The position numbers were made by a program, and so were the translations under genes. 64,000 bases of DNA from a virus (lineage: Duplodnaviria; Caudoviricetes). Below, in pieces: positions 3,763-17,269 of this stretch. The DNA lies in the IMG/VR virus record IMGVR_UViG_3300020045_001587, positions 1-64,000 of that record, one strand, 5' to 3'. The notes beneath the pieces were generated by a model, which was not told the DNA's origin, ran no database searches, and saw only the letters and a program-made list of their open reading frames with translations. Each line of letters opens with the position of its first letter. The first letter of the stretch is position 1.

Positions 3763-4878
3763 GCCTTGATTTCAACAATCCGCATAACAACATCCTCACC
3801 ATATGTAGCACTAGACCGGAAGGAAAGAGGTACATCAACCGTCATCTGTGGTGCTACTTGCCTAGCCCTGTCAATTGTTACATTATGGCACCACAAATAG
3901 GCATACACTTCGGCTTCTCGCATTGTGTCAAATGTGCAACAAGCCCATTGTTTCTTATTTGTGTGAATGGAAGCATCCTTCCAGACGTTATTAGCCTTGT
4001 CCGAACATTCTTGCACTTTGAACATTATTTCTCCCATTGCCATTCTGTACGAATAACAGCATCCGCACTAAAACTAACCCTCACGGGTTGCGCCACCCGA
4101 GCATAGTTTAAAGCTAGGTCATTCTCTATGCGTGCTGGCTGTGTTATTGTAAATAATACATTTGTTGTCATCTCACATCCGAACTCTTTTAGTAGCTCGG
4201 TAAGACGCTGTTCAAATTTTATTGTGTTCACAGCAACGCCTCCCCAACAGCTTCCAATGCTTGTTTGTAGCGTAGGGCATAATATTCTATGCTGTATGTT
4301 GTAGGGTGGGTCATGTCATTCCTCTGTTCATCTGTCGAGCAATATTATCAGCACTCACTGTCATAAGCGTCTCTGAGCATTCATCACAGCCAAGAAAGAA
4401 TAAGCATTCAACGTCATTTGTACTAAGCCTATTATGCTGCACCTCAGACCGATTGACAATAGAGGTTTGCCATGTAAGATGAGTGCTACCACAGTTTTTA
4501 CATTCTGTTGGCTGTTTCATTTTAGTCTTTCGTTATCGCAAAACGTATTTATATCAGTTTGTTGGGCTGGCGTCAAGTAAAATGTGAAAATAGTTTTGAA
4601 TGCTTCAATCAATCCGCTGTCTTCCTCGTAGACTCCTGAGACTATTTTCTTATAATCGCTCATCAGGGCATTCACTACAATATTGTTTTCTTCGTCGTAT
4701 GTCATTATAGCTCCACAGTATATCCAACGTTAATCAATTTATTGTCGGTCGGGTGCTGTATGTAGACATTGGCCTTACACTCTTTACCGTCAACAAGGCA
4801 CCTAGTTTTAACCATGTCCCGCCCCAAGTCGTCCAGTTCTGCGGGGTCTTGTAATAGCTCTATAACTTCATATTTCAT
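3759..4878 (-). other. Cluster of small hypothetical genes (3759-4043, 4025-4231, 4311-4520 Zn-ribbon-like, 4517-4705, 4705-4878)
   Basis: Abutting or overlapping leftward ORFs with RBS; CxxC...CxxC in 4311-4520. Confidence 0.7.
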
Positions 4879-4887
4879 ATAAATCCT

Positions 4888-6180
4888 TTATTTAGAACAA
4901 TCCACCACTTGTGGGGCGTCATCTTCAAGCCAATTCATTTTCATGCTTACCACTCGGTCAACCTCAATGACGCGCTTGTATGCGTAAGACATAGCAGACA
5001 CAAGAAAATCGGAATTCTTACGTTGCACAATAAAGCTGTCATGCACCACAAGCACAGGCTGTTGAATCTTTACAAACTCGTCCAGAACATAATGCGCGAT
5101 CCAGCTATCCTTGTTCTGTAGAATTAGCCCGGTGCATTCCTTGTTACAGAATTTACTTTTGAACTCTGGTAGCTTTTTGTATATATCCTTTACTACGTCA
5201 TTGCCTCTAGAATAACAGTATGTTCCTTTGGGTTCCTCGTCAATCAGATCGCTAATTGCTTGCTTAGCCTTGTACTCAGATGTAGCGTTAAGCATGATAT
5301 TTATGCCTAGCTTTACAAGCCGCCGATTATTTGTGCTATAGTTTTGCTTGTCTAGCACATGATAATAAATGTCAACACCACGATATGCAGTAATTCCCAT
5401 TATATCAGATAGCATATTTATGTGCAAGCAATCAAAATCAATTTCAACTATTGATTCTCCGTCAATTGTTGTTCGTAGTCTGTTGTTAGTTTTCTTATTC
5501 TTTATCTTTAGAATGGCAGCCTTAAACCACCGACCACCAAAGAAGAAAGATTCATTATTGAATATCCTACCGTACATATTGACCATGTAGTCGCCATTAT
5601 AGTCTAGGAACTCATGCTTAAAGTTCATCAAGTTAACAGCGCTCACTACTCGTTCGGCTTCCAGAATGCTGTCATTGAATTCAAACGAAACCTTGTTCTT
5701 CTTCTTGTCCCTTAACTCAATACTGGCATTAGCGAGAACATGGCTTATCTCGGCATTAGTAATCAAGTCATCTTTCTTTGTACAGAACTTATTAATGAAT
5801 AATTCTGTAGGTACAACATAAGAGGACTGCTTAGTGTCAATGCTGCCATACTGCCTACTAGCAGGATAATCAAACAGATAACCTAGTTGCTCTAGTTCTT
5901 CCACAGCATTAGTGATCGAGTGATTAGATAAATCTCTTTTATTATAGATGGTCGGTAGCTTGGCTGTCTTAGCTCTAAGATAATACAATCTCTGTCTCCT
6001 AGCAACACAAGCAATCATATTCATGATCACAACATGCAAGGCACTACGATTCTTAGTCTTCCATCTTTCTGTTGTCTTACGTACTCTCTTATCTATATCT
6101 ATATTCAACATCATACGCTTACTGTTGCTTGTGTATGCTTGTGTGCTTAGGGTTATTCCTTCTTCTGTTACTCGTATCAT
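4888..6180 (-). CDS. Compact T7-RNAP/PolA-superfamily polymerase-like protein (430 aa)
   Basis: GGRWF, motif A-like VEIDFDCLH, motif B-like RRLVK, motif C VHDSFIV (T7 RNAP has IHDSF). Confidence 0.7.
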   Translation of the reverse strand: MIRVTEEGITLSTQAYTSNSKRMMLNIDIDKRVRKTTERWKTKNRSALHVVIMNMIACVARRQRLYYLRAKTAKLPTIYNKRDLSNHSITNAVEELEQLGYLFDYPASRQYGSIDTKQSSYVVPTELFINKFCTKKDDLITNAEISHVLANASIELRDKKKNKVSFEFNDSILEAERVVSAVNLMNFKHEFLDYNGDYMVNMYGRIFNNESFFFGGRWFKAAILKIKNKKTNNRLRTTIDGESIVEIDFDCLHINMLSDIMGITAYRGVDIYYHVLDKQNYSTNNRRLVKLGINIMLNATSEYKAKQAISDLIDEEPKGTYCYSRGNDVVKDIYKKLPEFKSKFCNKECTGLILQNKDSWIAHYVLDEFVKIQQPVLVVHDSFIVQRKNSDFLVSAMSYAYKRVIEVDRVVSMKMNWLEDDAPQVVDCSK

Positions 6181-6320
6181 CTAATCCTCTATAACTTAGT
6201 ATTCCTCCACAGTCAGGCGGGCCTACTCATTAAGGCAAGAAAAACATACACAAATACCCGAAAAGTGAGTATCCATGCGGGTTCTGAGACATTTCATGTT
6301 AGGTTATGCCCGCCTTCACA
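6181..6320 (-). ncRNA. Putative structured 5' leader / ncRNA upstream of the polymerase-like gene
   Basis: Closing stem AGGCGGGC/GCCCGCCU (6308-6315/6215-6222), inner ACCCG/CGGGU stem, possible UACUCA/UGAGUA pseudoknot; starts right after a consensus promoter. Confidence 0.5.
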
Positions 6321-6324
6321 CTCA

Positions 6325-6352
6325 ATTATACAGCAAATTTGTACCCTGTCAA
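6325..6352 (-). promoter_or_regulatory. Consensus promoter TTGACA-16-TATAAT
   Basis: Perfect hexamers upstream of the leader and polymerase-like gene. Confidence 0.85.
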
Positions 6353-6361
6353 TTGGTAGTA

Positions 6362-8169
6362 TTACGTAGACAAAGTAACAACATTAGCCTCCCACCAATC
6401 CACACAATATTGACAACTACCGGACATCTGTACAACACCTCCCGACAACGTGCTAATCTTATGCACCTTACCAATACGTGTCATCTTGTACATGTCGCAT
6501 TGCTTCACCATAACTTCTTTCTCGGCTGGCTTTACATTGCCGACAGCCATTCGTGGAATTCCTACATGCTGGAATACTTGGCCGTTCTTTGATTGTGTTT
6601 TAGTGTTATTGTACATATCAACGCTCCAACGTAACAGACCCATGAAATTGCTTAAACCCTTCCTTAGCCCAATCATCCTCATTGCAGCCTATACGGGGTT
6701 CGAGAGCATGACTTATAACAGTGCCCCAGAAATACTCACAACATGAGCCTGTAACAATTAAAATAAGACTTGCATCATACTTGCACACAACAATATTTCC
6801 AACATAAAAGATGTTGTCGCTATCATCAGATGATTGTACCACAGTAGATTTAAATTTGTTCATTTGTATTTATCCTTAAAATTGATTACAGCCCCTTAGA
6901 GCCACTCTTACTATCTTCCTACACTTACCCTTGCCAAGCTCTACAAACGTCGCTATTAGCCGTTAAAGGGCATTGCTGTGGATGTCATTACACCAACCTA
7001 GACAATGCGTCTCTAGCATCAGTCAAGTTATCATATGCTTCTGTACAATCTTCTTTCAATTGCTCTAATTCATCAATAAACTCATCCAGCTTGTCACGAT
7101 CAGACGCTACTTTAGCCATATGCTTGTCAATATTCTTGACAATACTCTCAATCTTACTTTTGGTAAGCATATCATTCCTCCAAACAATCAATAGTTAATT
7201 GTGCAATATAAGCTGCATACGTTCCCGGACATTTTAGCACAATTTCTTTGAGATTGCTTAGGACAAGTGTTAGTTGTTTATCTGTCATTACAACACCTTT
7301 AATTGTGACATCAATTCAGCAATTCTTTTATTATATTCTTTTGCAGTGATTTTGCCAGAATTAAATAATGTACCAAGGTGGTAACGTGATTGGATAAACT
7401 CTTGTTCGGTCATTGTACACCTTTTAAACGTTGTTTGTACCTATATTTATCAAGATATTCCCCTTCATAAATACATCCCTCTACAAAGTAGCTGTATCCG
7501 CTCCATTTATTTTGAATACAATACGCTTCTGCATCCTCAAGCGTTTTGAATTCTTTTTCTTCACTCCCGCAGTAAGAGTTATAATCCCTGTCTACTTCGC
7601 CAATGAAAAATCTCATTACGTATTCTCCTAATTTATACAAAGTTATTCTTTAGTTCTTGAGCAATACCAGCCAGCATAAAACCTTGCCCAAAACAATATT
7701 TGTACAATAGTAAATATATGCCAATTCATATTATTCTTCTTCAATCAACTCATTTTCAACACAGCAAGTTATCCAAGCGTCCTGCTCACACTCATACCGA
7801 CCTGTACCTTTTTCATCACCCTCTGTCCAATAGTGATAAAATCCATAAGGTAGGCGCCTATTTGGAAAACTAGCGTAAGTAGACTCTACTCTATAGCCTG
7901 CCATGCGTGCAATAGCTTTATGTGTCAATTTCATATCATTTCTCCTCAATATCCAAAACACAGGCTTCACAGAACGAATGCATTCCAAGCCCTGTATGTT
8001 CGCCAAACACTTTGATAATTTCCCATATTTGCATTTTAACAATGTCTCCTTCCTTCGTGTGGTATGTCATGCGAAATTGCTTAGGAATGCTATTATACCT
8101 GTTATTGTAAATCTCTGCGCCATGTGCTGTCAATGTGAAATAGGCGTAATTGTTAATGTTTATTTTCAT
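6362..8169 (-). other. Cluster of small hypothetical genes (e.g. 6618-6863, 6988-7191, 7410-7640, 7936-8169)
   Basis: Co-oriented short ORFs with RBS-like sequences. Confidence 0.65.
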
Positions 8170-8807
8170 TTGTTCAGCCCTTGCAAATAAGCATTAATAT
8201 AACTTTCAATAGTATCCTCCGATCCGTCTGCATCATCCCAATCATATTTAGTCATTTCTTTCATAAGATTTTTAACCGCGATAATAGGAATAACGTCACC
8301 GCCAGCAATAGAGTGCTCAACGGCTTTGTTGGCTAGATTGCGTGCGGCTGTTGATGACCAAGTGAATTTATCCTCTGGAGCCTCATCTACAGCAAATTTA
8401 TAATAGTGTGTTTCTAATTCCCCATAAGATAATTTCGTCTCAATAACAGGTGCTTTGCTGGGCCATTTGCACCCAGTTAAGTGTAACCAGTCAGGGTTGG
8501 ATACAGAAACAGTAAACTCATGTCCTTGATCGTCTAAGAGTCTGTCATTAGTGAACACTGGCTTGCCTTCGCAATAACCAAGAGGGGCTAGGAACAAATC
8601 GTAACAGGTATTTTCTCTCTCCGTGTAGTGTCCTTTACTATCCAGTGGAAACACTTGTCCATCAATTGCGACCACTACTTGATAGAGCGGCTCATTCTCT
8701 GGCACATAAGCAATAAACTTAGCTTCCCGTCCTGCTCGCGTACAAATAGGGTGCTTTGCTTGTGCCAATGCTAAGTCAAACTCACGCATATTTTCTGGAA
8801 TGTTCAT
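8166..8807 (-). CDS. Hypothetical phage protein (213 aa)
   Basis: Long ORF overlapping its neighbour by 4 nt; FDLALAQAKHPICTRAGR resembles a recurrent phage module. Confidence 0.8.
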   Translation of the reverse strand: MNIPENMREFDLALAQAKHPICTRAGREAKFIAYVPENEPLYQVVVAIDGQVFPLDSKGHYTERENTCYDLFLAPLGYCEGKPVFTNDRLLDDQGHEFTVSVSNPDWLHLTGCKWPSKAPVIETKLSYGELETHYYKFAVDEAPEDKFTWSSTAARNLANKAVEHSIAGGDVIPIIAVKNLMKEMTKYDWDDADGSEDTIESYINAYLQGLNK

Positions 8808-9280
8808 TTTACAATACCTTTAAGAAATTCTAACAGTTCTGCCGGATTGATTACGTCAATATAGTCTTCGTAAAATCCTGCTGCATTGTCCCAATCAATG
8901 CTAGGCTTTAGCACGGACACCTTTGTAGTTGCATATTCTATTGCAGCCATTAATTGTAGTATAGTAATGTTCATAATTAGCCCACTTTCTTTACGGAAAT
9001 AATTTTAATATTTGTACTGTCATAGTCTGCATCTTCAGGATACATTTGTCCAAGCTGTACAGCCGCATCTAATTCTGTCTCGGCTGGAATTTGATATTTT
9101 CGCTCTTTCGTCACGCCAACTTTAGTTTTTGTGTAAGTAAATTCATACAGGTTCATTATACAACCTCCACTTTATGTAATTGCCTCTTGCCACATTTAAG
9201 GCAAGTACGCTCCTGCCAAAGCCATCTAGTATTACTAAACTCTACATCTTTCCACACGCTCCATTTATGCCAGCAGAGCA

Positions 9281-17190: not shown

Positions 17191-17269
17191 ATTATAACAG
17201 AAATCTGCAAAATGTCAAGGAAATGTTGTAGAAATTAATTGTTGACATTGTGTAGAAATGGCGTAGAAT
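17191..17269. promoter_or_regulatory. Divergent promoter pair: minus TTGACA-16-TATAAT (17191-17218) and plus TTGACA-16-TAGAAT (17242-17269)
   Basis: Consensus hexamers at the strand switch. Confidence 0.8.

Follow-up and report, generated by a model that had tools for sequence, protein, structure and literature searches.

Among the known origins that are activated or primed by transcription are the primary origin of phage T7, which lies behind promoters, the origin of phage lambda, transcribed from pR, and that of ColE1 with its RNA II. Single-strand initiation signals (ssi) and single-strand origins (sso) of rolling-circle plasmids and of phages with single-stranded DNA (ssDNA) are hairpins, and the messenger RNA (mRNA) of T4 DNA polymerase carries a translational operator in the form of an autoregulatory leader hairpin. 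Iteron origins, as far as the consulted portion of one source describes them, have a standard anatomy of iterons, an A+T-rich unwinding element, and DnaA boxes beside a winged-helix Rep gene (PMC10602881). Here, these systems are compared with a locus at positions 6181-6352 of IMG/VR virus record IMGVR_UViG_3300020045_001587 (Duplodnaviria; Caudoviricetes), namely the 5' leader of a gene for a winged-helix protein with a minimal family-A polymerase fold (the mini-polymerase). The window analyzed comprises bases 1-64000 of this 83,724-bp viral record, which has direct terminal repeats. An original prediction, made from the letters of the DNA, had proposed that this leader is a structured RNA, closed by an inverted repeat, that could act as an autoregulatory leader or as a possible RNA partner (template or cofactor) of the polymerase in a retron-like layout. 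On the best reading of the evidence, a 16-nucleotide (nt) core in the leader and the repeats that flank it are instead the local representative of a mobile-element module that is widespread and single-copy, and not a folded RNA specific to the polymerase. That an origin-type module lies in the transcribed leader of this gene is a functional reading of sequence, and one that is considered quite possible while falling short of probable.

The core, AACCCGCATGGATACT (6283..6268, minus strand), appears to be a copy of a widespread origin-associated hairpin core. It is intergenic in the window and single-copy in the 83.7-kb genome, even with three mismatches allowed. Four loci of the same clade were available with DNA: L001 (81% protein identity), L005 (50%), L010 (38%), and L084 (93% to L010). 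Each of four related genomes has a single AACCCGCAT 9-mer, in every case within this leader. Upstream of the 38%-identical homologous gene in L010 (G003), AACCCGCATGGATACT is exact and on the opposite strand, and in L084 it is inverted as in L010, with one change. Identity over 16 nt across proteins that are 38% identical, in either orientation, points to an element at the DNA level. The core is flanked by two complementary boxes, AGGCGGGC (6315..6308, minus strand, at about +3..+11 of the transcript) and its inverted copy GCCCGCCT (6222..6215, minus strand), the latter 44 nt past the core and a direct repeat of the core's CCCGCNT. These boxes were first taken as the arms of a closing stem and are, on the best reading, locus-specific repeats flanking the core. 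They constitute the sole 8-mer present twice within 150 nt on either side of the core, and CCCGCNT, with 13 sites in 64 kb, has three of them inside a span of about 100 nt in this leader, the only such cluster.

The exact 16-mer was found in at least 120 unrelated viral contigs; the scan returned at least 120 stretches, from which 80 loci were fetched for context, and in 59 of these the core is intergenic, outside long open reading frames (ORFs). None of the 80 has a mini-polymerase homolog within 1.6 kb of the core (tblastn best E 0.69). Being widespread with no homolog nearby, the core is therefore not specific to the mini-polymerase. Further, the 16-mer is absent from five genomes that carry distant polymerase homologs. 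The 90 distinct flank sets have the consensus CTGA-core-GG(C/G)TTT, in which an AAACCC/GGGTTT stem would close around an 11-nt loop. A helix longer than this stem was considered and set aside, as the excess pairing in the 90 flank sets was weak (0.05-0.10 per position). The window lacks the flank consensus: TCAG-A precedes the core, CACTTTTCGGGT follows it, and the 3' arm of the stem is shifted by 8 nt. Short repeats are enriched around the core, with at least three copies of an 8-mer within 150 nt on either side in 33 of 73 core loci vs 8 of 133 control windows, and at least four copies in 15 of 73 vs 1 of 133; the window, with its AGGCGGGC/GCCCGCCT pair, has two. Among 141 neighboring ORFs, most without a Pfam hit, the recurrent families are primase-helicases of the VapE/DUF5906 or Toprim-AAA_25 type (9 loci), followed by integrases (3 loci), terminases (2 loci), and GP88 (2 loci). 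In all nine primase-helicase loci the core lies 42-329 nt past the stop codon of the gene, on the same strand in three.

Near variants of the core are intergenic in named Pseudomonas, Erwinia, Pantoea, and Escherichia phages, and in phages YMC11/02/R656 and PAJU2 a direct repeat flanks it; phage G4 is not among the 31 phage records matched by the core search. Two inverted copies 170-187 nt apart are present in L090, L105, and L124, while of the other two loci with paired copies (L125 and L154) one has an inverted pair 80 nt apart (L125) and one a direct pair 76 nt apart. Such pairs could mark bidirectional priming or paired sites. In host genomes the 16-mer is rare, being present in 4 of 401 Pseudomonadota genomes (5 sites) vs none for a reversed control, and the idea that it is a host gene fragment, such as an attP core, was rejected on this count. 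An Rfam search around the core in L211 and 20 further loci gave no match. A full-text literature search found no paper that prints the core sequence; closed-access plasmid literature lay outside its reach, and the element may already carry a name there.

Near variants also occur in 81 plasmid records, including a 1,782-bp plasmid with a Rep_trans gene and a 2,480-bp plasmid with a Rep_1 gene. In pHB2b, a 5,370-bp Rep_3/MobA plasmid, three 21-bp direct repeats run straight into CTGA-core-GGCTTT. A Klebsiella IncFIA plasmid shows, from repE outward, an inverted repeat (the operator), four repeats containing TTTGTCACA, then CTGAAACCCGCATGGATAA, an A+T-rich stretch, and two copies of TGGATAA. Judged by these surroundings, the element appears to sit elsewhere in places where replication origins sit.

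What is conserved in the leader of the polymerase gene was examined by comparison with its relatives. Distant homologs were drawn from viral, metagenome, genome, and named-phage collections. A search of viral contigs with protein P0012 gave no further close relatives, and the metagenome and genome scans gave distant homologs only. The structure comparison comprises three leaders, those of the window, L001, and L005, with the 50-83% homologs in the protein database standing outside it. Between the window and L001, 64 of 128 four-fold sites of the polymerase gene are identical. In the leader, the blocks kept in L001 are the promoter, ATGAAATG, AGAACCCGCAT, TGCC-TAATGAGTA-GCCCGCCTGAC, and the ribosome-binding region, and TGCCNTAATGA is common to the window, L001, and L005. 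The outer stem is lost: in L001 its 5' arm AGGCGGGC is replaced while the 3' arm GCCCGCCT is kept, and in L005 neither arm is present. Because these blocks survive despite four-fold identity of 64/128 and the outer stem does not, the constraint on the leader falls on its primary sequence and not on the proposed fold. Additionally, the UACUCA partner of UGAGUA is missing in L001, and the inner hairpin has no stable equivalent in L001 (z -0.23) or L005 (z +1.1). RNAalifold on the three leaders gave -5.7 kcal/mol without the outer stem and no consensus structure common to all three, and the leaders of L001 (z -0.57) and L005 (z -0.41) fold like their shuffles. The proposal of an inverted-repeat-closed RNA conserved upstream of homologs as a partner of the polymerase thus finds no counterpart in these relatives. 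The composite pattern AACCCGCAT-N25-55-TGCCNTAATGA was found at 11 loci, of which only L001 and L005 adjoin a polymerase homolog; the other nine lack one and resemble unrelated coding sequence. An antisense ORF (ATGCGGGTT...) was rejected for want of conservation, with 105 amino acids (aa) in the window and 12 in L001.

Within the window, the pairings that the original prediction had listed are all present in the sequence: AGGCGGG/CCCGCCU (AGGCGGGC and GCCCGCCT, recovered by a repeat finder as inverted repeat I2, 11 nt at 91%), ACCCG (6282..6278) with CGGGT (6260..6256), and TACTCA (6271..6266) with TGAGTA (6229..6224). The structured leader as a whole did not hold up, as its 145 nt have a minimum free energy (MFE) of -34.7 kcal/mol against an average of -34.2 for shuffled versions (z -0.14), 82 of 200 of which fold equally well. 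Only the inner part, 6286..6236, is locally unusual (-14.2 kcal/mol, z -3.48; 1 of 200 shuffles equals it). It holds a local hairpin at 6248..6282 (minus strand), drawn either as ACCCG...CGGGT or as GCAUGGAUACUC/GGGUAUUUGUGU with five G.U pairs, and a promoter and terminator scan lists a hairpin with a T-run at 6278..6248. A 3-nt spacer (AUG) separates the hairpin from UUUUU. The hairpin ends 67 nt ahead of the start codon, and the ribosome-binding site stays outside it. Past the hairpin comes a T-rich, A+T-rich stretch (6225..6254, minus strand; 70% A+T vs roughly 60% as the regional average) with a TTTTT run at 6244..6240 and the conserved block TGCCTTAATGA at 6237..6227. The final part of the leader (6181..6214, minus strand), with the Shine-Dalgarno sequence AGAGGA at 6190..6185 and the ATG at 6180, is mostly unpaired in the MFE fold. 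Across 5800-7000 Rfam had no relevant match even at an E cutoff of 10, and in the window none reached the gathering score. As a separate observation, the hairpin 3' arm UUGUGUAUGUUU (6253..6242) is 92% complementary over 12 nt to 6140..6129 (minus strand) in codons 14-17 of the polymerase ORF, quite possibly by chance; the part of the ORF around these codons carries a tandem ACACAAGCA repeat.

The promoter named in the original prediction is borne out. The minus strand is the coding strand throughout the first 17 kb of the window, and 6181-6352 is the gap between a 106-codon ORF (6682..6362) and a 430-codon ORF (6180..4888) on it. A sigma-70-type promoter, TTGACA-16 nt-TATAAT (6352..6325, minus strand; TTGACA 6352..6347, TATAAT 6330..6325), matches the consensus at 12 of 12 positions and is the only such match in 4000-9000 in a promoter scan. 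Perfect TTGACA-N15-18-TATAAT sites number four in 64 kb vs 0.12 expected, and none of 100 shuffles reaches four. The promoter position is kept before the homologous gene, as TTGACT-16-TACAAT in L001 and TTGACT-16-TATAAT in L005. The promoter upstream of the mini-polymerase gene, an early one, is real, beyond chance. Its position would place the transcription start at about 6318 (6319-6317), giving a leader of about 138 nt to the ATG at 6180, in keeping with the ~140 nt claimed. The gene upstream of the promoter differs between the window (106-aa ORF, 6362-6682) and L001 (174-aa ORF, 2241-2765). Since similarity between the two begins at the promoter, the polymerase gene behaves as a single unit with its leader and promoter. 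A megablast search of phages with 4000-8000 gave no match. A search for RNA sequencing runs that cover 4888-6700 found none, and two DNA sequencing runs yielded four 151-nt contigs inside the polymerase gene and none over the leader.

The gene itself (4888..6180, minus strand) encodes a 430-aa protein that belongs to PHROG 4756 (phrog_4756), of unknown function. Neither Pfam, NCBIfam, nor PADLOC assigns it to a family, and its sequence has no match in the PDB. In an AlphaFold model (pLDDT 86, pTM 0.82), residues ~148-428 have apicoplast Pol (apPol), Klenow, Bst, and Taq as top Foldseek matches, with VIA Z of 15.2 for apPol, 14.0 for Klenow, 12.3 for yeast mitochondrial RNA polymerase (RNAP), 10.9 for T7 RNAP, and 7.2 for N4 RNAPII. 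Residues ~34-150 match winged-helix proteins (Z ~6), and in the predicted structure this domain resembles plasmid initiators. The label mini-polymerase is thus fair, a DNA-binding-type domain standing in front of the part that matches family-A polymerases. The fold is of family A and Pfam gave no reverse transcriptase (RT) match in the protein, so that both earlier statements about the enzyme, that it is polymerase-like and that it is not an RT, agree with the model. Identity to the window protein in the N- and C-terminal parts is 39.6/37.3% in L010, 40.9/54.5% in L005, and 26.7/36.7% in L006; the N-terminal domain seems relatively better kept in L010, which has the exact core, a small point for a link between core and protein. 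The window also holds a T7-type replisome set of primase/helicase, family-A polymerase, exonuclease, and ligase.

Taken as an origin, the locus could work as follows. Host RNA polymerase would start at the consensus sigma-70 promoter and transcribe the ~138-nt leader into the polymerase gene. The leader would carry a module made of a short hairpin with the nearly invariant core AACCCGCATGGATACT, locus-specific flanking repeats, and then a T/A-rich stretch, and this site would be the core of the phage origin or a priming or assembly site within the origin. Proteins might assemble on the flanking boxes, and the hairpin and adjacent A+T-rich DNA might be where the strands open or a primer is laid down. 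The strong promoter may contribute through transcripts that run across the site, either by activating it or by providing a primer, and the adjacent winged-helix polymerase is a candidate for the protein that acts there. The promoter, the pattern of conservation, and the distribution and contexts of the element are observed; we infer the origin function at this locus, the role of transcription, and binding by the polymerase alike. At the DNA level, this sequence and the polymerase may be specially linked, as an origin with an adjacent initiator-like gene. A more specific version, which is rather doubtful, makes the winged-helix mini family-A polymerase an initiator polymerase dedicated to the origin: it would bind the boxes around the hairpin in its own leader and would either start DNA or RNA synthesis or extend the short transcript that host RNAP makes from the consensus promoter, before handover to the T7-type replisome.

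Several observations weigh against an origin at this site. The window core has no iteron array around it (at most two copies of any 8-mer within 150 nt on either side), its flanking repeats amount to one inverted 8-mer pair and three CCCGCNT boxes, and no canonical DnaA box was seen in the leader. The turning point of the cumulative GC skew is at ~13-17 kb, where transcription also switches direction, and not at 6.2 kb. Both closest relatives have a degenerate 16-mer (AACCCGCATACAGCCT in L001, AACCCGCATGTACGCT in L005), so that the clade does not strictly need the full core; L005, moreover, has no equivalent hairpin. Initiators of many unrelated types are found alongside the element, and nothing links the core with this polymerase in particular, whose profile found no match in 10 core-carrying genomes or records, a blank that shows little. 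Finally, the five G.U pairs and the U-run of the window hairpin would also suit an RNA terminator.

That last property leads to a cis-regulatory leader as another account of the same features. The AGGCGGGC and CCCGCNT boxes would be repressor operators, possibly for the polymerase's own winged helix, the hairpin and U-run would form a leaky attenuator that keeps expression low, and the likeness to origin hairpins would be one of shared sequence, not of shared function. One box overlaps the inferred start site, and the terminator-like hairpin was flagged by the scan and is locally stable (z -3.48). Terminator-like hairpins lie at -120..+12 in 8 of 40 homologous genes, compared with 5 of 186 ORFs of other kinds and, on the antisense strand, 3 of 40, those in L003, L007, and L008 ending 54-60 nt before the start vs 67 nt in the window. 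However, neither L001 nor L005 keeps the hairpin, the +3..+11 box is lost in L001, the stem is G.U-rich with its 3-nt AUG spacer before the U-run, the inversion of the core in L010 would alter the RNA, and the presence of the same 16-mer at plasmid and phage origins is left unexplained. This account is regarded as unlikely, if serious. A 24-codon micro-ORF in the leader (6297..6223, MKCLRTRMDTHFSGICVCFSCLNE), whose translation would control the polymerase gene, is extremely improbable and was rejected as not conserved. Its first seven codons are identical in L001 with two synonymous third-position changes, and a 21-codon ORF in L005 has T-R-M in the same frame; yet two third-position changes have a chance of about 1 in 9 without selection, no Shine-Dalgarno sequence precedes the ORF in the window, L001, or L005, an in-frame TAG follows after 15 codons in L001, and the L005 ORF does not include the conserved TGCCTTAATGA block.

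The hairpin may alternatively have some other DNA-level role beside origins, as an ssi/sso-type host priming signal, a recombination or resolution site, or a selfish intergenic element, with no particular relation to the polymerase gene. The variety of initiators alongside it (Rep_trans, Rep_1, Rep_3, RepE, and primase-helicases), its position beside the integrases and terminases counted above, the inverted pairs in L090, L105, L124, and L125, and its mixed strand relative to the primase-helicase genes would all fit such a role. The consensus, moreover, has CTG ahead of the core, and CTG is the start trinucleotide of Escherichia coli primase. Against this, its position between the IncFIA iterons and the A+T-rich region, and its abutment on the pHB2b iterons, argue that it is part of the origin proper, and the core is single-copy in a complete phage genome; this role, too, is thought unlikely. 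The discrete RNA of the original prediction is now very improbable. The strong promoter and, ~75 nt on, the hairpin with its U-run would yield an RNA of ~80 nt that could serve as template, primer, or cofactor of the polymerase in a retron-like layout, and the same arrangement is seen in L006, where TTGACA-17-TATGCT is followed by a hairpin and T-run. Against it stand the absence of a conserved structure among the three leaders, the loss of the closing inverted repeat in L001 and L005, the absence of an Rfam match, the family-A rather than RT fold of the enzyme, the inversion of the core in L010, and the wide occurrence of the core without a mini-polymerase.

If the tentatively preferred origin reading is right, an origin-type module beside the gene would give the uncharacterized phrog_4756 family a role open to testing, namely to initiate or prime at one defined site, and the leader would supply a defined DNA substrate for biochemistry on this polymerase. 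A 16-nt core that phages unrelated to one another have in their origin regions in common with plasmids of the Rep_3, RepE, Rep_1, and Rep_trans types could also serve as a marker for origins in uncultured viral genomes, and, if it is undescribed, raises the question of which common factor reads it. Should the narrower initiator-polymerase version hold, the 16-mer hairpin would represent an origin core that is general across phages and plasmids, as yet without a name, and adopted independently by different initiator families.

Across the wider polymerase family, terminator-like hairpins lie 17-67 nt before the start codon in L003, L006-L009, L017, L027, L031, L041, L055, and L057. GGCTAC/GTAGCC recurs in stems upstream of distant homologs (2.5 vs 0.14 per kb, 18-fold, in 12 of 40 loci), a motif chosen after sight; it tops an unbiased 6-mer ranking (5 of 23 lineage representatives, 0.51 expected, p 1.3e-4) and fails correction for 1,445 tests, and as a family-wide motif it is a lead only. 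Comparison of the L003 and L007 stems by eye shows a compensatory change, C-G in one and G-C in the other. The Vibrio/Aeromonas homologs L079-L083 have no terminator-like hairpin in the intergenic gaps of 151-279 nt before the gene. Upstream organization being this diverse, no single RNA structure accompanies the polymerase family. In L079 and L081-L083 a possible small ORF (~40-55 codons, by eye) is found in the 216-279-nt gap before the polymerase gene, and in two of the Vibrio/Aeromonas records an annotated small coding sequence overlaps the start of that gene. In L003 (Vibrio phage 1.121.O, MG592495.1, 27.6-34.7 kb), the polymerase homolog and small genes stand on the opposite strand between neck/head-closure and head-completion genes, and the region looks like an inserted cassette. 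The ICP1 homolog (553 aa, 25% identical) lies at 52.4-54.0 kb in ICP1_2006_D (L067) and at 58.9-59.9 kb in other isolates. An early bidirectional origin of ICP1 is placed "near the 60 kb position" in the consulted portion of one source (PMC7145576), and that of another adds nothing on this origin (PMC9410903); the proximity of origin and homolog was set aside as too coarse to count as evidence.

Elsewhere in the window, the four perfect sigma-70 consensus promoters lie at 6352 and 17218 (minus strand) and at 33685 and 38834 (plus strand), and the phage therefore uses host RNA polymerase for at least part of its program. The promoter at 17218 faces a divergent gene block. That at 38834 opens the stretch 38834-38975 (plus strand), where a perfect TTGACA-17-TATAAT (38834-38862) is followed by a tRNA-like sequence with an 8-bp GGCUCCCG/CGGGAGCC stem, a T-arm-like hairpin GGGGUUCGAUACCUC, and then UCCA; it has no ARAGORN or Rfam match and a fold z of -1.34. 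Near the left genome end (~101-400), four AGCAACAT 8-mers on either strand within 300 nt form the densest short-repeat cluster in the window.

Set beside the systems named at the outset, the locus resembles each of them in part. Like retron msr/msd with its RT, it has an inverted repeat flanking ~90 nt just upstream of a polymerase gene; unlike a retron, its inverted repeat is not conserved, its enzyme is family-A-like and not an RT, and neither a retron family in Rfam nor PADLOC was matched, so that the retron-like organization suggested earlier is not supported. Like the T4 DNA polymerase mRNA, the locus has a hairpin in a polymerase leader, whereas here it ends 67 nt before the start codon with the ribosome-binding site free, is not kept in the closest relatives, and has a core that is inverted in L010. 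With ssi/sso hairpins the element shares a conserved hairpin independent of Rep type, present in minimal Rep_trans and Rep_1 plasmids and sometimes in two inverted copies; it differs in that no sequence match was made to a named ssi or sso and in that its strand relative to neighboring genes is mixed, and a search of the literature on the polymerase family and ssi signals found nothing relevant. Transcription-activated origins offer another parallel, as a strong promoter would fire through an origin-like site in a genome with a T7-type replisome set, with the differences that the window promoter is of the host sigma-70 type and that the extra small polymerase has no counterpart there. Iteron origins, such as mini-F ori2/oriS with RepE and those of Rep_3 plasmids, differ in their iteron array, where the window has its inverted 8-mer pair and CCCGCNT boxes, and in the canonical DnaA boxes not seen in the window leader; in the window protein the winged helix is fused to a family-A polymerase core and not to a second winged helix, and the module lies wholly inside a transcribed 5' leader. 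Nevertheless, IncFIA has the same core (CTGAAACCCGCATGGATA...) between its four repE-side repeats and an A+T-rich stretch, the core of the Rep_3 plasmid abuts three 21-bp iterons, and the core of the window likewise precedes a T/A-rich stretch and adjoins the gene for a winged-helix product.

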